DNA of 64,000 nucleotides from Eledone cirrhosa (taxonomy: Eukaryota). Positions 1 to 41,768 of this stretch are shown piece by piece. The stretch is from NCBI GenBank assembly GCA_964016885.1, contig OZ024741.1, positions 41,726,001-41,790,000 on the forward strand, given 5' to 3'. Position numbers and translations under genes: made by a program. The notes under the pieces were generated by a model, which made no database searches, had not been told where the DNA came from, and saw only the letters and a list, made by a program, of their open reading frames with translations. The stretch's first letter is position 1. The number at the start of each line of letters is the position of its first letter.

Positions 1-1010
1 CACGATCACTACAACAACCACCAACACCACCATCACTACCACCACCACTACAACAACCACCAACACCACCATCACTACCACCACCATCACTACCACCACC
101 ACTACAATAACCACCAACGCCACCACCACTACCACCACCACTACAACAACCACCAACACCACCATCACTACCACCACCACTACAACAACCATCACCAACA
201 CCACCACCACCACTACAATAACCACCAACACCACCATCACTACCACCACCACTACAACAACCACCAACACCACCATCACTACCACCACCACTACAATAAC
301 CACCAACACCACCACTACAACAACCACCAACACCACCATCACTACCACCACCACTACAATAAGCACCAACACCACCACTACAACAACCACCAACACCACC
401 ATCACTACCACCACCACTACTATAACCACCAACACCACCATCACTACCACCACCACTACAATAACTACCAACACCACCTTCACTACCACCACCACTACAA
501 CAACCACCAACACCACCATCAATACCACCACCACTACAACAACCACCACCAACACCACCACCACCACTACAATAACCACCAACACCACCATCACTACCAC
601 CACCACTACAATAACCACCACCACCACCACCACTACCACCACCACTACAATAACCACCAACACCACCATAACTACCACCACCACTACAATAACCACCAAC
701 ACCACCACCACTACCACCACCACTACAACAGCCACCAACACCACCATAACTACCACCACCACTACAATAACCACCAACACCACCACCACTACCACCACCA
801 CTAGAACAACCACCAACACCACCATAACTACCACCACCACTACAATAACCACCAACACCACCACCACCACTACAACAACCACCAACACCACCATAACTAC
901 CACCACCACTACAATAACCACCACTACCACCACCACTACAACAATCACCAACACCACCATAACTACCACCACCACTACAATAACCACCATCACCAAGAAA
1001 AACAACACCA
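1..1010. repeat. Low-complexity (ACC/ACT/ACA/AAC)n satellite with ~33-39 bp higher-order unit
   Basis: Recurring unit ccaccactacaa(c/t)aaccaccaacaccaccatcacta; almost G-free on the + strand. Confidence 0.9.
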
Positions 1011-1089
1011 CCCTCAACAATCACCAAACTAATACATCAACAACACCACTACAATAACCACCACCACTACAACCGATACCACCACTAAA

Positions 1090-1680
1090 CTAATACATCA
1101 ACAACACCACTATCACTGTCAACACCACTATCACCACCACCACTACAACTACCACCGTCAACACCACTATCACCACCACCACTACAACTACCACCGTCAA
1201 CACCACTTTCACCACCACAACTACCACTGTCAACACCACTATCACCACCACTACAACTACCACCGTCAACACCACTTTCATTGTCAATACCACTATCACC
1301 ACCACCACTACAACTACCACCGTCAACACCACTTTCACCACCACCACTACAACTACCACTGTCAACACCACTATCACCACCACTACAACTACCACCACTA
1401 CAACTACCACCGTCAACACCACTATCACCACCACTACAACTACCACCGTCAACACCACTATCACTGTCAATACCACTATCACCGTCAACACCACTATCAC
1501 CACCACCACTACAACTACCACCGTCAACACCACTTTCACTGTCAATACCACTATCACCACCACCACTACAACTACCACCGTCAACACCACTATCACCACC
1601 ACCACTACAACTACCACCGTCAACACCACTTTCACTGTCAATACCACTATCACCACCACCACTACAACTACCACCAATAC
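1090..1680. repeat. Second trinucleotide-derived minisatellite (~39 bp unit)
   Basis: Unit caacaccactatcaccaccaccactacaactaccaccgt repeated with variants; explains the poly-Val and Pro-rich pseudo-ORFs. Confidence 0.9.
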
Positions 1681-1879
1681 CATTATTAAACTAATATATC
1701 AATACATCAACAACGCCAGCGTCACCATCATCATCGTCATCATCACCAAACTAATACAAAACAAAACCTCCACAGAAAACAAAATAAATATGAAAAACAT
1801 TGTAAATAAAATAAACTGAGAGGAAATTAAAGTCAGAGAATAAATGTAGATGAAGATACAATAAATAACAAGTAGAATA

Positions 1880-2992
1880 AAGTCACAAAGATAGGGGGGG
1901 GGTCACAGAAACAGGAGGAAGTCAGAAAAGGAGGGAGGTCACAAAAAAAAGGTAACTTTTTCAGAGAAAGTGGAGAGAAAAAGTCACAAAAAAAGGGAAA
2001 TTTTTCAATGAAGGAGGAGAGAAAAAGTCACAGAAGAAGGAGGAAGTCAGAAAATGGAAAATAAATTCAAAGAAAAGAGGGAGAATTTTCACAGAAGGAG
2101 GGGAGAAAAGGTTACAAAAAAAAGGGGAGAATCACATTGCAAATGTAGGAAATAAAGTCAGAAAGAAACAGTGTCACAAAAGAAGGGGAAAGAGTCATAA
2201 TTGACAGCAGTGACAGAGCAATGGAAAAAAAGTCACACAAATTGAAAAATGATACAAAACATGAAAAAAGTCAGAATGAAAAGCGGAAAAAAGCAGAAAA
2301 AATGTGAAAAGTCAGAAAAAAGGGAAGAAGTCAGAAAAAGAGGGAAGTGTCAGTAAAAAAGGGGGGGAAGTCAGAAAAAAGGGGAAAGTCAGAAAAAAGG
2401 GGGAAGTTAGTAAAAAGAGGAGAAATCAGAAAAAAAGAGAAAAAGTAAAAAAAAGAGAAGTCAGACAAAGGGGAAAAGGGCAGTAAAAGAAGGGGGGAAA
2501 AGCAGAAAAGGGGGAAAGTCAGAAAAAAGGGGAAAAAGTCAGAAAAAAGAGGAAAAAGTCAGAAAAAAGGGGGAAAGTCAGAAAAAAGGGGAAAAGGGAG
2601 AAAAGGTCAGAAAAAGGCAGATAAAAGGGGAAAGAGTCAGACAATTGGAAAATAGGCAGAAAAAAATGAAAAAAAGAGGAAAAAAAAGAGGAAAAATAAA
2701 AAAAAAGGGAAAAGTAAAAAAAAAGGGAAAAATAAGAAAAAGGGGGAAAAAGGTCAGAAACCGGGGAAAAAGTCAGAAAAATTGGAAAAGTCAGAAAAAG
2801 GGGGAAAAGACAGAAAATGGGGGGAAAAGGCAGAAAAAGTCAGAAAACGGGGAAAAAAGTCAGAAAAATTGGAAAAGTCAGAAAAAGGGGGAAAAGACAG
2901 AAAAAAGGGGACAAGTCAGAAAAAAGGGAAAAAGTCAGAAAAAAGGGAAAAAGCCAGAAAAAAGGGAAAAAGCCAGTAAAAAGGGAAAAGAG
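1880..2992. repeat. Purine-rich degenerate satellite
   Basis: Recurring aaaagtcagaaaaaagggg motif, ~20 bp period; the Lys-rich ORFs are artefacts. Confidence 0.85.
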
Positions 2993-3215
2993 TGATGGTG
3001 GTGGTGTTAGTAGTAAGAATGGTGGTGATGATAGTGGTGGTGGCAGTGGTAGTGGTAGTGATGGTGGTAGTAGTAGTGATGGTGGTGGTGGTAGTGGTAG
3101 TGATGGTGGTGGTGGTAGGAGTGGTGGGTGGTGGTGGTGGTAGTAGGAGTGGTGGGTGGTGGTGGGAGTGGTGGTGGTGGTGGTAGTGGTGTTAGTAGTA
3201 GGAGTAGTGGTGGTA
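2993..3215. repeat. (GGT/AGT/GAT)n low-complexity tract
   Basis: Direct reading of the sequence. Confidence 0.9.
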
Positions 3216-3277
3216 GCAACTGTAGCAGTATCATCAGCAATAATTTATAGTATATGACATGACAAAAAGCATAGTCC

Positions 3278-3480
3278 ACCTTGTAAGGTGGTTGGCATTA
3301 GGAAGGACATCTAGTTGTAGAAAAACAATCCCCAAAAAGATCATATGAGCAAGATGTGACCCCCTGACTTGTCTAACCCTATATCACAACAACTTGTCTA
3401 ACCCATGCAAACACTGGAAATAGATGTTAAATAGATGTTACTGATGGTGATGTAATAGTAATTATAACAGTGATGATGGA
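3278..3480 (+). mobile_element. Degenerate RTE-type SINE/LINE 3' tail
   Basis: ggttggcattaggaaggacatctagttgtagaaa ... aacccatgcaaacactggaaatagatgttaaa matches the RTE 3' end at 9577-9736. Confidence 0.75.
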
Positions 3481-3699
3481 AATGAAGACATGGTAAAACT
3501 GGATAGGATGTCTTGTGTTGTTTGTTTTTTGTGATGGTGGTGGTCATAAAAGTGGTAGGAGGAGAAAAATCTATAGGTAATACATGAATAGATAATAGGA
3601 AAAAGAGAGAAATAAGGGAGAAAAGGTAGAAAAAAAAGTAACAGAGAAGGATTGGTGTCAATTTCCAAACTGTAAAGTAGATGAGAGATTGGAGTTTTA

Positions 3700-3945
3700 T
3701 TGTTAAGCAATTGACCCATCCCCCACCCGGGTTGGGGTGAGGGCTCTGCATAGTAATTTATTTGAGCTCTCAGCTGAGCTTTTTAGTTTGAGGATGGTTA
3801 GAATTTTTGAATTTAATAGCTGTATCTATAACTTTTCAATTCCAATTACTTGCACCAAAGCTAACTTTGGTATGTAAAAATGGGGGAAGCTGTGTATTCT
3901 AATTTGTTTGTTCCTTGGGAACCCTAAGGTCTAAATCCAACCCTG
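3700..3945 (+). mobile_element. Non-autonomous DNA transposon (hAT-like), family E
   Basis: Shares aatttatttg..ctcagctg..tttttagttt.aggatggttagaattttt with 18787-18975 and, inverted, 55817-56094; ends taaatccaaccctg. Confidence 0.6.
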
Positions 3946-4921
3946 ATTATAGTGTCAGTTCAAGGAAAGAGGTTTTATTGCTTGAAAGAGTCATTAGAGC
4001 ACAGTCCTGTCACACAGCATGTCATGGCCATTTTAACCCTGGCACAGCCCATCCCTCTGCAGGCTGGAATACACCTGATTTCTTACAGAGAAACTGATAA
4101 AGACAATGATAAAAGAAAGTGATAAAGACAAATAGTGGAAGAATCCCCATTATTTGTCTTGACAGGTACTTTATCGACCTCAAAAACATGAAAGACATAG
4201 TTGAACTCAACAGGATTTGAACTCAGAGCATAGTGAGCTAGAATAAATACTGAGGCATTTAATCTGGTGCCCTAATGATTTGGCTCGCATAATGCAAAAC
4301 AAAAAAAGAAGGATCAACCGCTTCAGGAATTCTCCAGCTTCCAAACATAATTTTACCTCAGGGAATATGGTGCTTGACAAGAAGACAATGAAAGCAAGGA
4401 GTGATGTTTCTTAATGTCTGAAATAAACAATGCATTAGAGCTAATGCCATTTCAGAAACGTTCAATGGGAAAAACATACTTAGAAATAAAGTATAGGTGT
4501 GCATCAGGAAGGACATCTAGTCATACTAAAAAAACCTTCCTGAAATCTGGCCATCTTGTCCAACAGATATATTGTCCATGTCAAAATGAGAAGAAAAGAT
4601 GTGAAAACAGTAACAGATACTGAAAGTGTAAAAAAACAACTTTCTACTCTTTTCTACAGACAGAAAATAAGTCACACTGCAAATAATATATTTTACGCTG
4701 TTTTCTTTTATATTTTCTCATTTGTTTTATCAATTCACTTTTCAAATTTGTTGCCTTTTTTTCCTTTCTTTAAATATTTCAACCTGCTACACTAAATATA
4801 TACCAGTAAACGTCAATCAGAGAATTGTTCCTATATTCAATAAATTGTCTGCTAAAAGCAGTCTTTCTCTCAAATGAAATACTTTTATTTTATTTATATA
4901 TATATATATATATATATACAT

Positions 4922-19393: not shown

Positions 19394-20211
19394 GCATATA
19401 TATAATAATACCAAGATGGCGACAAGGAAGGTCGCTTGACCAAACAAAATATAATATTTTCACCAAAAACTGCCCTTTAAACACATGTCAGATGGATTAC
19501 AATATTCATTATTACAATTACTCTGACTGTTCCCTGACAACTAGTACCAGCTTCAACATAGAATTATTTTAACGAAGTATATTTAATTTGACTTGATTTT
19601 CGCCAACAAACCACGTGTGGACATGGACGGGGAAAAAGGGAAAAAAACAAACAAATCACTACATCCCTTAGGGATCGCAGTAAGTACTTCACAAAACATA
19701 TAAACAACAATATACACACAGATTTATATACAGATATATACCATATGCATATACACACATACGTGAAAAGAAACCACACTATTTCGTGTGAGACACTATA
19801 CCGGCCAATCTTACGTACATTGGTAAAATATCTCTGAACATTGACTTCGCTTCTAACCCACATACACCTTTTAATTATATATATATACTAGCAGCTGAAA
19901 GTTAATAATTTGAAAAATATTATTGAAAGTTTATTATAAAGAAGCAGTATCAGGGAAAAAAAAAAACGTTATTTCGCTGTTAATAAACTGTTGCCTTCTA
20001 CAGTACGTTTCATTTAACTTACGCAGCATATTTATTTGTTTACATGCACAGACTCTTCTGTACACACACAACATTTAGGAAAACGGAAACAAAATACATA
20101 AAAACAAAACAAAAAAACAGACATTTTATTTCTATCGTAATCAAGTGCGCTAAACCTATATTGTTTACATTCTGTGTTTTTCTACGGGTGGGTAGAAATA
20201 ACAAAATTGCC

Positions 20212-21458
20212 ATGGTGATATCCATCGATGAAGTATGCGACAAAACTGGTCGATGTTCCAAATTAGAACATTGCCCAGAAAACCACATCTGCCATATCTG
20301 TGCGGAACCCGAAAACTCGTTCCATAATCGCTGGGTCGAATGTGGAACCTGTCACATCTCTGTCTGCCTTCAATGCGCCACAGGCTTCCGGAGGATCCCA
20401 GGCCCAAAAAAAAAGAGACATAATGCTATGATGGATGGAATCTGGGAGATGGTCCAGCTAAAATCCTGGTCCTTTCAGTGCCTGGCCTGTGTGCCTGCCT
20501 CCACTAATGTTATTGAAAAACAACAACAACAACAACCAATGACTGTATCTTCCTCTACCATTGTTACTGAACAACGGCAAAAACCTATGACACTGGCTTC
20601 TACTGCTATTCCTGTGGGAGAACATCAGAAGCAACAACAACCCATGTCTTCCGCTCCCAGTACATCTCGACACCAACAACCTGCGACTGTGTCTTCCCCT
20701 ACCATTCCCGTGGAGGAACATTATCATCACCAACAACAACAGCAACAACAACCTGCGACTGTGTCTTCCCTACCATTCCCGTGGAGGAACATCATCATCA
20801 CCAACAACAACAACAACAACCGACCAGTACAGATTTTGCAGAATTGCAGCTAATGATTTCTGCTTTAAGAAGGGAAGTAACAGGAATAAAGGCAAGCATT
20901 CGGGTAGGACCCCACAATGAGGAGTCTTATCGGAATGCCTTGCTAAAGAATCTCCCTGTACCTCTTGTCGTATCTGGCCACACTGAAAAGACTGCGGAAT
21001 CTGCTACCCATGAAGTGATTGCCATTGGGGTACCAGAGGACAAGGCTGATCTTCAGGCATTTGCTGCCAGCTCAGCCAAAGAACTAGGCTGTGTTCCCCC
21101 AAAGGGTGCTCTCCGCCTTGGTCGACCTGGTCCAAATCCCAGACTCATCAGGCTGTCTTTTTCGGACCTCGCTGAGGCAACCTCATACCATCTGGCCTCT
21201 GTTAAAGCTGGGCGTGAAGATCGGATTACCTTCCGAACACGCCCAGGCCTACCACCCCATGTACGTCCAAAGCTCCGTGCTGCAGCTTCCTTGAATCGGA
21301 ACTCAGCACAACATGAAAGTTTTAGTCTGTGTGATGATGGGCAGATCTGGAGGTTTGTCAAGGCTGGTGAAACATGGAAGAGAGATACCAGCTGGTCTGA
21401 GTGTGATCTACCCATAATAACTGGCAATGTAAAAACTGCTACAACTCTGGGAAACTAA
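20212..21458 (+). pseudogene. CR1 ORF1 (~415 aa): PHD-like Cys finger, Gln-rich repeats, coiled coil, RRM-like region; one frameshift
   Basis: ATG in gccATGg context at 20212; CHIC..WVECGTC..CLQC..FQCLAC; FAELQLMISALRREV; VIAIGVPE..RLGR..PRLIRLSF; 1-bp loss (cccc>ccc) at ~20770 relative to the preceding internal repeat. Confidence 0.85.
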
Positions 21459-24278
21459 ACCAGAACAACCTGCCACCCTCTACACACCATCATAAACTGC
21501 GAGCAGAGTACAAATTGTTGTCCTTAAATGCTCACAGTTTATGCAAGAAGATACATCTGTTTGAATCCTACGTCAGAAGCATCAACCCTGACTTCATCAC
21601 AGTCACAGAAACATGGGCACATTCCTTACTCTGTGATGGGGTTTTCAGCATTACTGGGTACAACCTTTTCCGCAAGGACCGCATTAATCGCCGTGGTGGT
21701 GGTGTGATGGTCTACGTTCGTTCAAACTTTTCGGTAATTCCTTGCGTTGATTTGAACGAATCACAGGAAGAAGTTTTTTTCTGTGACATACATATGACCA
21801 TGTCAACACTTCTGCTTGGTGTTGTTTATAGCCCCCCAAACTACCATCAGGACACACAGCTTTGCGATATCCTCAGAGTTGCTGGCAAGAAAACAGCCAC
21901 TTATGTGTTTATTGCAGGTGACTTCAATCATCCTGAGATCGATTGGGAAACCTTTCGTTGGCCACAAGGTGCAAACTATTTCCTTGAACTAGTGCTGGAC
22001 TCAAACTGGTCACAAGTAGTCACCTCTCCAACAAGAGGTGACAACACTTTGGACCTGATCTTCACCACTACTCCTGAAGTGGTTATCAGTTGTACTACTG
22101 AGGAACCTCTAGGCGACTCTGATCATGCTATGATCATTGCCAATCTGGCACTTGAGGGCAGCAACAAAAACCAGAGCCATCTCCAATCTGCTTGCTTTGA
22201 TTGGAAGAGGGCAGATTGGAACTTGTACTGCACTGAGCTACAGCGCCCAAACTGGCATGAGATGTATAACTCTGGAGATGTTAACACTATACTCCAGAGC
22301 ATCCTGGACTCAATATGGATAGCGCGTGCAGCATCGGTGCCACGGAAGCGGAAAAATAACCAGCCCAAAAGTGCAATTTGGGAAACTTCAGCGGTCTGAC
22401 TTGCCAGGAAAGAACGTCGGAACGCTGAACGGGAATATAAACTGCATAAATCAGATGCCAACAGAAAAAAGTGGAATAAATCTGCTAACCATCTCAAGCA
22501 AGTGACAAAGAAGGCAGTGCTTGAATTTGAACAGTGCATAGCAACCAATCCTGACAGTAAGGTGTTCTGGAAATATGTTCATTCAAAGCAGAAACCTCAC
22601 TCTCCAGTTGGTCCTCTTCGCAATCCCCACACAAGCCAGATCACTAACGATCCCAAAGAATGCGCAGAACTCATTGCTGAGTGCTATGCAAGTATTTTTA
22701 CTGTTGAAAACCAGAATGTACCATCTCCACCATTTCTAACATCAAATTCCATAACAACTATGGAATTTACACCTGCAATGTTGCGACGTCACCTTAAGAA
22801 TAAGCGGAACTATGCCTCCCCTGGTCTTGATGGTGTGACATATCTGCTTCTCAAACGTGGCGGGTATTTCCTTTTGCGCCAGCTTTCTTTCTTCTTTCAA
22901 TACTGTCTCAACAATGGTGCTACTCCAGTGCAGTGGAAAACTGCCAGTGTCATTCCCCTGTTCAAAAAGGGCAACCGCATGTCACCTGTCAACTATCGTC
23001 CAGTCAGTCTTACTAGCTGTATGGCCAAACTGATGGAATCCTGTGTCAGAGAAACACTTTGGAACTTCTGGAGCTCTCACAGCCTCATCCGGCCCTCACA
23101 GTTTGGATTTATCCCTAACTCCATCTGCTGTGATCAGCTTATCGAGTTCCTTGAAGACATAACCCGGATCACTGACAGCGGCTCATGGGTGGCTGTTGTT
23201 TATGTTGACTTTGCTAAGGCTTTTAATTCTGTGCCACACAAAAGACTTATGGCAAAACTCTCTGCAATGGGTGTGAGGGATGATCTTTTCGACTGGTTGA
23301 AATCCTTCATTCTCAGCCGAAAAGAAGTAGTCACTGTTCTAGGACAGCATTCTTCACCATATGAGATGTCACTGGTGTACCACAGGGATCGGTTCTTGGT
23401 CCCCTTTTGTTCGTGGCATATATTAATGACATAGATGCCAACTTACAGAATGCCACGGTACTGAAGTATGCAGATGACATCAAGCTGTACCTTGAAATCA
23501 AAAGGACTGATCCTGAAATTTACAACTCTTTCCTACAATCAGACCTGGACACAATGCAGCAATGGATCACAGACTGGCAACTGAAGCTGGCTGTGGACAA
23601 GTGTACCACCATGCATTTTGGAAGGAAAAATCCAGCGTCCACATACTCCCTCCACAACACTGATATCAAGAAGTCCTCTTGTGAACGTGACCTGGGCAAT
23701 ACTGTGAGCAGCGATTTGCGTTGGACAAAGCATGTCTCTAAGATTGTCAAGAAGGCCGAGGGTGTCTTGGCATAACTCAGCAAGACTTTTGTTAGCCGCT
23801 CTCCAGCCATCTATTTAAAACTGTATACAGCTATGGTACGACCACACTTGGAATTCGCATCATCAGTCTGGAACCCCTATCTTGCTCAGAACATTGACCT
23901 CCTGGAAACTGTTCAGAGACGTGCAACCAAGCGCATACCCTCCATCAGACATCTGCCATACTCTGAACGCCTTGCTTCCCTGGGCATGGATTCATTGAAG
24001 CTCCGACGTCTGGCAACGGACTTGGTGAATACCCACAAAGTTATTAACCATCTCGCCAATTGCAACCCTGAGCGCCTTTTTGATCTCATGTGTCTAACAC
24101 ACGTGGACATGCCTACAAAATCAGAAAACAGCACAGCTCCCATGACTTTCGTAGACATTTTTTCACGCTCAGATTTGCTGAAGCATGGAACAAACTGCCT
24201 GCGTCAGTTGTTAGCTGCCGAGACACTGCATCCTTTAAGACACTCATGCTTCCCGAAATATGCCAAAACTACACCTGA
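21407..24278 (+). pseudogene. CR1 ORF2: apurinic endonuclease plus reverse transcriptase, inactivated
   Basis: APE motifs LNAHSL, VTETW, GDFNHP, LDLIFT, SDH; RT KYADDIK. Lesions versus copy 2: CGA>TGA at 22397, 1-bp deletion ~23370, TCA>TAA at 23773, 1-bp deletion ~24085. Confidence 0.92.
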
Positions 24279-24788
24279 TGTCCCCCTTCCATACACATGC
24301 ACACATGTGTGTATCATGACTCGTGCACTGTTCATTTTACTGATGTTTGTGCATTGCCCTATGTACTGTACATGCACTTTTTGATGAGTTGTGGTGCACC
24401 TGGGCACTGTACACAATATTTCATTATTATTATTATTATTATTATATCATGACTCGTACACTGTTCATTTTCCTGACATTTGTACATTATTCTACGTACT
24501 ATACATGCACCTTTGATGAGTTGTAGTGCACCTGAGCACTGTACACAATAATTTCATTATTATTATTATAGATGAAAATAAGCATGGAATCATTAATCCA
24601 TATTGTAATAATGAAATAGGCTTTGTTGTTCATTTGCCACATGAAAGCAAGGATCTGGCAAAAATGCTCTAAACATATTTAAAATTCATGCAACAGAAAT
24701 GTAAGCTCCAAAAGAGAGTGGTAATTTTTCTAGAAACCTATCATTCATAACAGAAATGAGTGTTCTCATGAGTGTATGTATATGTGTC

Positions 24789-39367: not shown

Positions 39368-41768
39368 ACAAAAACCAGAGCCATCTTCAATCTGCTTGCT
39401 TTGATTGGAAGAGGGCGGATTGGAACTTGTACTGCACTGAGCTACAGCGCCCAAACTGGCATGAGATGTATAACTCTGGAGATGTGAACTCTATACTCCA
39501 GAGCATCCTGGACTCAATATGGAAAGCGTGTGCAGCATCAGTGCCACGGAAGCGGAAAAATAACCACCCCAAAAGTGCAATCTGGGAAACTTCAGCAGTC
39601 CGACTTGCCAGGAAAGAATGTCGGAACGCTGAACGGGAATATAAACTGCATAGATCAGATGCCAACAGAAAAAAGCGGAATATTCCTTCTAACCATCTCA
39701 AGCAAGTGACAAAGAAGGCAGTGCTTGAATTTGAACGGTGCATCGCAACCAATCCTGACAGTAAGGTGTTCTGGAAATATGTTCATTCAAAGCAGAGACC
39801 TCACTCTCCAGTTGGTCCTCTTCGCAATCCCCACACAAGCCAGATCACTGACGATCCCAAGGAATGCGCAGAACTCATTGCTGAGTGCTATGCAAGTATT
39901 TTTACTGTTGAAAACCAGAATGTACCATCTCCACCATCTCTAACATCAAATTCCATAACAACTATGAAATTTACACCTGCAATGTTGCGACGTCACCTTA
40001 AGAATAAGCGCAACTATGCCTCCCCTGGTCTTGATGGTGTGACATACCTGCTTCTCAAACGTGGCGGGGATTTCCTTTTGCGCCAGCTTTCTTTTTTCTT
40101 TCAATACTGTCTCGGCAATGGTGCTACTCCGGAGCAGTGGAAAACTGCCAGTGTCATTCCCCTGTTCAAAAAGGGCAACCGCATGTCACCTGTCAACTAT
40201 CGTCCAGTCAGTCTTACTAGCTGTATGGCCAAACTGATGGAATCCTGTGTCAGAGAAACACTTTGGAACTTCTGGAGCTCTCACAGCCTCATCCGGCCCT
40301 CACAGTTTGGATTTATCCCTAACTCCAGCTGCTGTGATCAGCTTATCGAGTTCCTTGAGGACATCACCCGGATCACTGACAGCGGCTCATGGGTGGATGT
40401 TGTTTACCTTGACTTTGCTAAGGCTTTTAATTCTGTGCCACACAAAAGACTTATGGCAAAACTCTCTGCAATGGGTGTGAGGGATGATCTTTTCGACTGG
40501 CTGAAATCCTTCATTCTCAGCCGAAAGGAAGTAGTCACGGTTCTAGGACAGCATTCTTCACCATATGAGATGTCATCTGGTGTACCACAGGGATCTGTTC
40601 TTGGTCCTCTTTTGTTTGTGGCATATATTAATGACATAGATGCCAACTTACAGAATGCCACGGTACTAAAATATGCAGATGACATCAAGCTGTACCTTGA
40701 AATCAAAAGGACTGATCCTGAAATTTACAACTCTTTCCTACAATCAGACCTGGACACAATGCAGCAATGGATCACAGACTGGCAACTGAAGCTGGCTGTG
40801 GACAAGTGTACCACCATGCATTTTGGAAGGAAAAATCCAGCGTCCACATACTCCCTCCACAACACTGACATCAAAAAGTCCTCTTGTGAACGTGACCTGG
40901 GCATTACTGTCAGCAACGATTTGCGTTGGACAAAGCATGTCTCTAAGATTGTCAAGAAGGCCGAGGGTGTCTTGGCATCACTCAGCAAGACCTTTGTTAG
41001 CCGCTCTCCAGCCATCTATTTAAAACTGTATACAGCTATGGTGCGACCACACTTGGAATTCGCATCATCAGTCTGGAACCCCTATCTTGCTCGGAACATT
41101 GACCTCCTGGAAACTGTTCAGAGACGTGCAACCAAGCGCATACCCTCCATCAGACACCTACCATACTCTGAACGCCTTGCTTCCCTGGGCATGGATTCAT
41201 TGAAGCTCCGACGTCTGGCAATGGACTTGGTGAATACCCACAAAGTTTTTAACCATCTCGCCAACTGCAACCCTGAGCGCCTCTTTGATCTCCATGTGTC
41301 TAACACACGTGGACATGCCTACAAGATAAGAAAACAGCACAGCTCCCATGACTTTCGCAGACATTTTTTCACGCTCAGAGTTGCTGAAGCATGGAACAAA
41401 CTGCCTGCGTCAATTGTTAGCTGCCGAGACACTGCATCCTTTAAGACACTCATGCTTCCCGAAATACGCCAAAACTACACCTGATGTGCCCCTTCCATAC
41501 ACATGCACACGTGTGCACTGTTCATTTTACTGATGTTTGTGCATTGCCCTATGTACTGTACATGCACTTTTTTGATGGGTTGTGGTGCACCTGGGCACTG
41601 TGCACAATATTTCATTATTGTTATTGTTATTATATCATGACTCATACACTGTTTATTTTCCTGACATTTGTACATTATTCTATGTACTATACATGCACCT
41701 TTGATGAGTTGTAGTGCACCTGAGCACTGTACACAATAATTTCATTATTATTATTTTATTATTATTAT
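39368..41768 (+). mobile_element. CR1-clade LINE copy 2, 5'-truncated, young
   Basis: Highly similar to 22164-24570; same duplicated 3'UTR and (TTA)n tail. Confidence 0.97.
39370..41484 (+). CDS. Uninterrupted CR1 reverse transcriptase ORF (lacks APE domain and its own start)
   Basis: ~704 open codons with SPGLDG, PLFKKG, NYRPVSLTS, YLDFAKAFNSVPH, GVPQGSVLGP, YADD; the first 25 aa of track ORF 39295 are flanking DNA. Confidence 0.9.
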   Translation, partial: KNQSHLQSACFDWKRADWNLYCTELQRPNWHEMYNSGDVNSILQSILDSIWKACAASVPRKRKNNHPKSAIWETSAVRLARKECRNAEREYKLHRSDANRKKRNIPSNHLKQVTKKAVLEFERCIATNPDSKVFWKYVHSKQRPHSPVGPLRNPHTSQITDDPKECAELIAECYASIFTVENQNVPSPPSLTSNSITTMKFTPAMLRRHLKNKRNYASPGLDGVTYLLLKRGGDFLLRQLSFFFQYCLGNGATPEQWKTASVIPLFKKGNRMSPVNYRPVSLTSCMAKLMESCVRETLWNFWSSHSLIRPSQFGFIPNSSCCDQLIEFLEDITRITDSGSWVDVVYLDFAKAFNSVPHKRLMAKLSAMGVRDDLFDWLKSFILSRKEVVTVLGQHSSPYEMSSGVPQGSVLGPLLFVAYINDIDANLQNATVLKYADDIKLYLEIKRTDPEIYNSFLQSDLDTMQQWITDWQLKLAVDKCTTMHFGRKNPASTYSLHNTDIKKSSCERDLGITVSNDLRWTKHVSKIVKKAEGVLASLSKTFVSRSPAIYLKLYTAMVRPHLEFASSVWNPYLARNIDLLETVQRRATKRIPSIRHLPYSERLASLGMDSLKLRRLAMDLVNTHKVFNHLANCNPERLFDLHVSNTRGHAYKIRKQHSSHDFRRHFFTLRVAEAWNKLPASIVSCRDTASFKTLMLPEIRQNYT

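Follow-up and report, generated by a model that had tools for sequence, protein, structure and literature searches.

Programmed -1 ribosomal frameshifting is defined by an in-phase heptamer X_XXY_YYZ with a downstream structure, and GGA, GGU and GUU are tolerated as variants of XXX (PMC3542737). The sequence GGGAAAC is the shift site of PEG10, PNMA3 and PNMA5 (PMC11299033), and G_GGA_AAC ranks with the heptamers most prone to shifting on mammalian ribosomes (PMC5009743). An identical heptamer stands at the junction of the two open reading frames (ORFs) of a long interspersed nuclear element (LINE) in the octopus Eledone cirrhosa. The element likely belongs to the CR1 group; in most vertebrates, elements of this group dominate among the retrotransposons (PMC13343379). 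It lies in a stretch of 64,000 nucleotides (contig OZ024741.1 of assembly GCA_964016885.1, positions 41,726,001 to 41,790,000, forward strand), called the window below, and all positions are those of the window. Comparison of the sequences indicates that ORF2 of this LINE family is probably translated by programmed -1 ribosomal frameshifting at G_GGA_AAC, which would fuse ORF1 to ORF2. The junction would then be a new variant of a known mechanism.

The octopus junction has the same phase as the sites of PEG10, PNMA3, PNMA5 and Rtl3 and as retroviral gag-pol and gag-pro sites, and its downstream enzyme frame likewise lacks a start of its own. The PEG10-type and retroviral sites are derived from long terminal repeat (LTR) elements and carry a stem-loop or pseudoknot 5–8 nt downstream, whereas the octopus LINE is a non-LTR element in which no such structure was found and which has no protease to cut a fusion. 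SRV-1 is also said to use G_GGA_AAC; it was one of two precedents named in an earlier note on this DNA, and the other, PEG10, is the documented one. The same note set the junction against the characterised LINEs L1 and SART1, and this contrast holds as far as these two elements go. Both are like the octopus LINE in their bicistronic RNA and low ORF2 output (PMC3894237; PMC2881922), but in them ORF2 opens with an AUG, the two ORFs are joined by either a spacer or a UAAUG overlap, and the ORF2 protein (ORF2p) is a separate product. Such an AUG is retained by the L1/Tx1-type copies of the octopus genome. The contrast was incomplete for LINEs in general. The Dictyostelium elements TRE5-A and TRE3-A, which are non-LTR elements with an apurinic/apyrimidinic endonuclease (APE), require a -1 frameshift for ORF2 according to the figure legend of a review (PMC5911963), so frameshifting in an APE-type LINE has a precedent. 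These elements resemble the octopus LINE in this stated requirement, and they differ from it in being amoebal, in their C-terminal zinc finger and in targeting tRNA genes. The Drosophila non-LTR element HeT-A is also stated to need a frameshift (PMC5009743), but its shift is inside gag and it has no reverse transcriptase (RT). No literature statement of frameshifting in CR1 was found; older subscription papers, which lay outside the search, may have proposed it. The 1997 papers on chicken and turtle CR1 reportedly deal with ORFs that overlap or lie close together, and may be among these. A review calls LINE ORF2 translation an open question, and in the portion covered it discusses internal ribosome entry sites, reinitiation and 2A sequences and does not propose inter-ORF frameshifting (PMC3894237).

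In the window, positions 21447-21458 read ctG GGA AAC TAA. The heptamer (21449..21455, + strand), which is the predicted -1 shift site, forms the last two sense codons of ORF1, lies in the zero-frame X_XXY_YYZ phase inside the ORF overlap, and adjoins the ORF1 stop TAA (21456..21458, +). The ORF1 frame extends over 20571..21458 and the ORF2 frame, -1 relative to it, over 21407..22399, which gives an overlap of 52 nt in this copy. The last -1-frame stop preceding ORF2 in the window's subfamily is a TGA at 21404..21406 (+). The first ATG of the ORF2 frame is at 21707 (GGGVMVY), 60 codons past the Asn motif of the endonuclease at 21527, and the five other ATGs in 21381-21720 are all outside the ORF2 frame. 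Since this ATG falls inside the endonuclease domain, it is not expected to start an intact enzyme. The heptamer coordinates, its phase, the -1 relation of ORF2 and the position of the first ATG had all been given in the earlier note and were confirmed. A strict heptamer of any sequence stands directly 5′ of 20 of the 3524 + strand stop triplets in the window, so the chance of one at a random stop is about 0.6%; within the element one of 170 stop triplets is preceded by such a heptamer, and this is the junction site. The window copy has lost 1 nt near 20770 and again near 23371, and it carries stops at 22397 and 23773. Ribosomes starting at its ORF1 would therefore miss the heptamer frame. This copy is dead, and the slippery signal is to be judged as a family trait.

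The junction DNA matched 1339 candidates in the same genome, of which the top 40 were 97–100% alike. Open ORF2 frames of 945–957 codons were present in many other copies. For subfamily A1, to which the window copy belongs, and subfamily A2, 84 junction-matching loci were collected, and removal of one duplicate and four loci not covering the junction left 79. The two subfamilies are about 83% alike. The heptamer with its stop (GGGAAACTAA) was exact in 72 of the 79 copies, and TAA was kept in all 79. The stretch from the heptamer to the Asn motif was without Met in 78/79 copies and without a stop in 78/79; the lone Met exception (L109) was caused by a local deletion. A1 and A2 differ in 59 of 350 columns, none of them in 21443-21459. 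This unchanged run is only the third longest, so it is modest evidence alone. In A3, an older subfamily represented by 30 of 40 listed copies (82–91% to the query copy), the heptamer and stop were exact in 22/30 copies with scattered changes in the others, and TAA was kept in 30/30. The ORF1 tail of A3 is 9 nt shorter and differs upstream from that of A1 and A2. A2 and A3 carry a -1-frame TGA 9 nt 5′ of the heptamer, which leaves an overlap of 19 nt. With the -1 frame shut 9 nt ahead of it in these subfamilies, the heptamer fills the sole shared overlap. The 52-nt overlap reported earlier is thus correct for the window copy and A1 but is not a family trait; it is specific to this youngest subfamily and incidental. 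The 'WQCKNC' stretch within it was considered as a coding zinc-finger piece and rejected, as stops cut it in A2, A3 and some A1-like copies.

The intact copies have two ORFs. Both were intact and in the -1 phase in 9 of 20 long stretches, which were fetched for long frames. A single ORF1+ORF2 frame of 1381 codons was found in 2/150 copies (L091 and L092) with differing private changes in A-run length (+1 and -2), and these fused frames may be due to mutation or an assembly slip. Logan contigs from four other runs showed that the LINE family is present in other organisms. No variant at 21449-21458 was listed at a 5% share in three Logan runs, whose contigs reveal neither expression nor splicing. 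A-to-I editing that makes a start was rejected, since no in-frame ATA precedes the Asn motif in the printed A1 copies or in L093; such an ATA is present in L061 and 19/30 older copies, so it is not common to all.

Related LINEs from metagenomes carry the strongest part of the evidence. The best 80 of 465 confirmed loci formed 64 clusters at 80% DNA identity, and one locus per cluster was counted. ORF1 and ORF2 overlapped in -1 in 49 clusters, were in frame in five and stood in +1 in one (a broken copy); nine could not be scored, which left 55 resolvable. The -1 overlap was at least 58 nt in 49/49. With relaxed XXX, an in-phase heptamer was found in 40/49 clusters, where the same ORF1s predict 6.3; the other two phases gave 8 and 6. 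A strict heptamer was in phase in 17/49 against 2.8 expected (other phases 6 and 0). The site lay a median of 12 nt past the last -1 stop and mostly 49–85 nt ahead of the ORF1 stop. To avoid circularity, sites were also defined by the protein motif alone. The -1-phase sites found in this way all had a preceding G and AAC (37/37), and their middle codon was GAA in 33, GGA in two and others in two, with GAG in none; the joint chance of this codon pattern from codon usage is 0.06. None of 44 other Glu-Asn pairs in ORF1 formed the heptamer. In 30 clusters, no -1-frame stop was seen between the motif-defined site and the ORF1 stop, whereas 59.9 were expected from the amino acids; the 25 codons preceding the site held 91 against 97.5 expected. 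Stops are purged from the heptamer on, which indicates that ORF2 coding starts there, some 70 nt ahead of the ORF1 end. A frameshift would account for this; reinitiation past the stop would not. The nucleotides of the site thus appear to be conserved beyond what the protein needs, most strongly in these relatives, whose lineages are linked. A similar junction type is most likely common to many related LINEs.

The N-termini predicted for 105 ORF2 homologues carried no information, because gene callers write M for other starts. A scan of viral contigs gave 13 pattern matches, none of them a relative. No longer, naturally fused ORF1 protein was found among 1730 candidates, which is weak evidence. 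The sequence GTGGTAGG, 12 nt 3′ of the heptamer, is nearly invariant (26/27 aligned relatives) without a consensus structure. A dual-coding constraint, or a linear stimulator to which a protein binds, could explain it. As a splice donor of the large relative clade it was rejected by eye, as there was no shared acceptor and the would-be intron was purged of stops.

The closest outside relative is L141, a metagenome contig from another organism with 58% APE identity to the octopus element and a homologous ORF1 (41–51%). In a quick APE tree, which omits clusters whose APE translation fell short of 150 aa (L189 among them), it groups with A1 and A2 (SH-aLRT 99) at a distance of about 0.7 changes per site. 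The ORF1 tail of L141 is unrelated and of another length; its end is nonetheless CAG GGA AAC TAG, in the -1 phase. The -1 frame opens 6 nt 5′ of the heptamer, giving an overlap of 16 nt. There is no in-frame CTG, GTG, TTG or ACG before the endonuclease. L141 was among the clusters left unscored in the phase statistics because its ORF1 is broken. None of the three sequence-level refutations named in the earlier note came true: the heptamer is kept across the three subfamilies and in L141, an in-frame ATG between heptamer and Asn motif is absent from all of the 79 A1 and A2 copies but L109, and the two ORFs do not share one frame except in the two copies with private A-run changes.

Several results weigh against frameshifting at this site. 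No stem or H-type pseudoknot starting 3–14 nt downstream was common to A1, A2 and A3. The first 60 nt past the heptamer gave z scores of -1.2 to +1.0 against shuffles in five octopus copies. No consensus structure was found among 27 relatives with G_GAA_AAC or G_GGA_AAC, nor was there a mean folding z signal across the 49 clusters with a -1 overlap. A stimulatory stem-loop or pseudoknot 5–9 nt downstream was thus not found, and long-range and protein stimulators lay outside the comparison. The earlier note had likewise seen no strong downstream pseudoknot by eye, and this caveat stands. As the usual definition combines a heptamer with a structure and the second feature failed, the junction is better said to work like a -1 site than to be a classical one. 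In addition, an in-frame CTG (21470..21472, +), seven codons past the heptamer start, is a candidate non-AUG start; all three octopus subfamilies retain it, as it occurs in the displayed copies of A1 and A2 and in 24/30 older copies. L141 has an in-frame ATG two codons ahead of the APE Asn. A start there would cut the first strand of the endonuclease; among L1/Tx1-type controls of the octopus genome, 25/27 copies carry Met 8–11 residues ahead of the APE Asn. The own-genome copies were chosen as best matches, which favours similarity. In the octopus family the stop adjoins the heptamer; the long-overlap test, which is the decisive one, was therefore supplied by relatives on other branches and not by this family. 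The metagenome clusters are phylogenetically linked (25 G_GAA_AAC clusters sit within one clade) and stem from a small number of host types, and what was counted is a handful of independent lineages, not 49. Finally, 9/49 clusters have only a non-canonical in-phase G_GGG_GA(A/C), the background of which is 1 in 13704 codons.

Two hairpins were observed near the junction. One at 21491..21543 (+) lies 35 nt 3′ of the heptamer and is strong in subfamily A1 only, with z scores of -3.1 to -3.9 in the window and -5.8 in L103 and of -0.2 and -0.3 in A2 copies. It was rejected as a stimulator because of its distance and its lack of significance in A2. The other is a hairpin in L141 beginning about 8–14 nt 3′ of the heptamer (z -2.7 to -3.5), which is the sole case.

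We propose the following course of translation. Most ribosomes would stop at UAA and release the ORF1 protein (ORF1p), which has about 410 aa in intact A2 copies. A smaller fraction would slip through tandem re-pairing of tRNA-Gly from GGA to GGG and of tRNA-Asn from AAC to AAA. The slipped ribosomes would read ...TLG(N/K)-LNQNNLP... on into the endonuclease and reverse transcriptase. The predicted product, an ORF1-APE-RT fusion, would have about 1,350 aa (in L093, 409 residues of ORF1 and a further 940) and would be made at a low level with a high ORF1p:ORF2p ratio. Given that no structure was found at 5–9 nt, the most plausible source of the pause would be the stop codon next to the heptamer or a factor acting in trans; the efficiency is probably low. 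The retrovirus-style fusion suggested in the earlier note gains support from the -1 signature of the wider family.

Termination and reinitiation as in L1 and SART1 is unlikely but is the alternative with most in its favour. Ribosomes would stop at UAA and restart at the CUG (21470) 11 nt on, giving a separate ORF2p and leaving the heptamer as a relic. The CUG is kept in A1, A2 and 24/30 older copies, and a start there would spare the entire endonuclease. In L1, a first codon other than AUG is tolerated for ORF2 (PMC1965478), and ORF2 translation depends on ORF1 translation in L1 and SART1 (PMC2881922). However, L141 retains the heptamer and stop and has no in-frame CTG, GTG, TTG or ACG, and 9/49 clusters are without any ATG, CTG, GTG, TTG or ACG ahead of the endonuclease. 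The junction holds UGGGA, which is motif 1 of the termination upstream ribosomal binding site (TURBS), but TURBS sits 40–90 nt ahead of the stop (PMC3542737); the octopus UGGGA is 3 nt ahead of it, no in-frame AUG stands beside the stop, and L141 reads AGGGA. Reinitiation downstream also leaves unexplained why the ORF2 frame of the relatives is stop-free from the heptamer on, about 70 nt before the ORF1 stop.

It is very unlikely that the heptamer is a by-product of a conserved C-terminal Gly-Asn of ORF1 and recent common descent, with ORF2 reached by internal initiation or from subgenomic or spliced RNA. The youth of the genome copies (97–98% alike) would allow it, but the synonymous sites are fixed in the relatives (37/37 G and AAC, no GAG), the amino acids swap between Glu-Asn, Gly-Asn and Lys-Asn while slipperiness stays, and the bias is phase-specific. 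For the spliced route, no polypyrimidine acceptor was visible by eye at the junction, and the intron-less element that reverse transcription of a spliced RNA would yield did not occur among the aligned copies. Hardly credible is a fusion protein supplied to the whole family by transcriptional slippage or by rare in-frame fused master copies. L091 and L092 do have a single 1381-codon frame (2/150) through a change of A-run length just upstream, but the two changes differ and were each seen once, so no spread is evident, and intact two-ORF copies are commoner (9/20 of those fetched for long frames). The A run is present in A2 and absent in A1, and polymerase slippage would favour no codon phase, against the observed 40 to 8 and 6. 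Programmed -1 frameshifting at G_GGA_AAC remains the reading that we favour.

Other junction types were found as well. In all five in-frame clusters (L159, L187, L208, L214 and L219) one TGA splits the ORFs, followed by CAA, CTA, CTG, TTA and CTA. Stop codons in the context UGA-C are leaky, and the type II readthrough motif is UGA-CUA (PMC3542737); these clusters are candidates that may reach the fusion by stop-codon readthrough. A second, distant LINE family of the octopus (L037-L060, two subfamilies), whose ORF1 is CCCH-like, opens its -1 overlap with U_UUU_UUA, 15–18 nt past the last -1 stop in 8/9 scored copies (13 examined). The zero-frame stop lies 76–109 nt past U_UUU_UUA in six phase-keeping copies; the copies are old and several are broken. 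One of its subfamilies has an additional A_AAA_AAC about 30 nt past U_UUU_UUA. The G_GGG_GA(A/C) sites of L160, L169, L171, L175, L182, L199, L204, L210 and L217 lie at the start of a -1 overlap of 76–106 nt and are candidate shift sites. In another LINE family (L031, L032 and L035), a PHD-like Cys motif lies directly 5′ of the endonuclease and in frame with it.

The window copy is a near full-length two-ORF APE-RT LINE (19411..24569, +) from a young family of high copy number, with a 5′ boundary at 19405-19416 in 8/20 long copies. ORF1 (20188..21458, +) has a Cys-rich N-terminus, a Gln/His-rich middle and a conserved C-terminal domain, and the 1-nt loss near 20770 splits it in this copy. Position 20188 is GTG in the window copy and ATG in intact copies. 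No Pfam family scored above the cut-off for ORF1 of the window copy or of the intact copy L093, and its named homologues were from Octopus vulgaris only (three matches). The N-terminus has a PHD-like Cys spacing by eye, and the Atlas matches to the C-terminal half were all under 0.9. The ORF1s of CR1/L2-type elements carry PHD, RRM, Tnp22 or esterase domains (PMC4120745). Within the Gln/His-rich repeat region (20520-20820), a unit of about 72 nt is duplicated, and its length differs among copies.

The AUG-less 5′ part of ORF2 (21407..22399, +) encodes a linker and the AP endonuclease and ends at the premature TGA at 22397. Residues 39-240 of this frame matched the endonuclease families PF03372 (E 6.5e-15) and PF14529 (E 2.9e-13). 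The remaining ORF2 with the reverse transcriptase (22400..24290, end approximate, +) is broken, and PF00078 was found in two frames. In L093, solely RVT_1 and two endonuclease families were above the Pfam cut-offs; there was no RNase H or restriction-like domain. A (TTA)n tail ends the window copy, L102 and L093, and a short tandem repeat in place of poly(A) is typical of the CR1 group. Membership in this group is likely from the architecture and a typical C-terminal motif, the APE tree covering unnamed rows only. In the 3′ untranslated region (24312-24569), a unit of about 130 nt is duplicated, each ending in (TTA)n, and the A2 copy L093 has one unit. A second copy of the family at 39368-41758 (+) is 5′-truncated, 96% alike and without the junction. 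Positions 1-4000 of the window showed a very strong GC skew (-0.82, then +0.54), probably due to simple repeats.

We consider it somewhat more probable than the opposite that the finding extends to much of the animal CR1 group. ORF2 would then never be initiated on its own; ribosomes would come to it from ORF1 through recoding, with no RNA stimulator nearby. This would occur mostly by -1 frameshifting at several independent heptamers (G_GGA_AAC, G_GAA_AAC, A_AAA_AAC, U_UUU_UUA and possibly G_GGG_GAH) and by UGA-C readthrough in some lineages, giving a Gag-Pol-like ORF1-APE-RT fusion as in retroviruses. The seven-base site beside the stop makes the ORF2 question testable with one reporter construct. 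If the proposal is true, gene callers misplace the ORF2 starts of these elements, and the elements would provide a large natural set of frameshift sites seemingly without the usual stimulator. The ORF2p of such elements would bear ORF1p at its N-terminus, which would change the view of their particles, of cis preference and of engineered versions.

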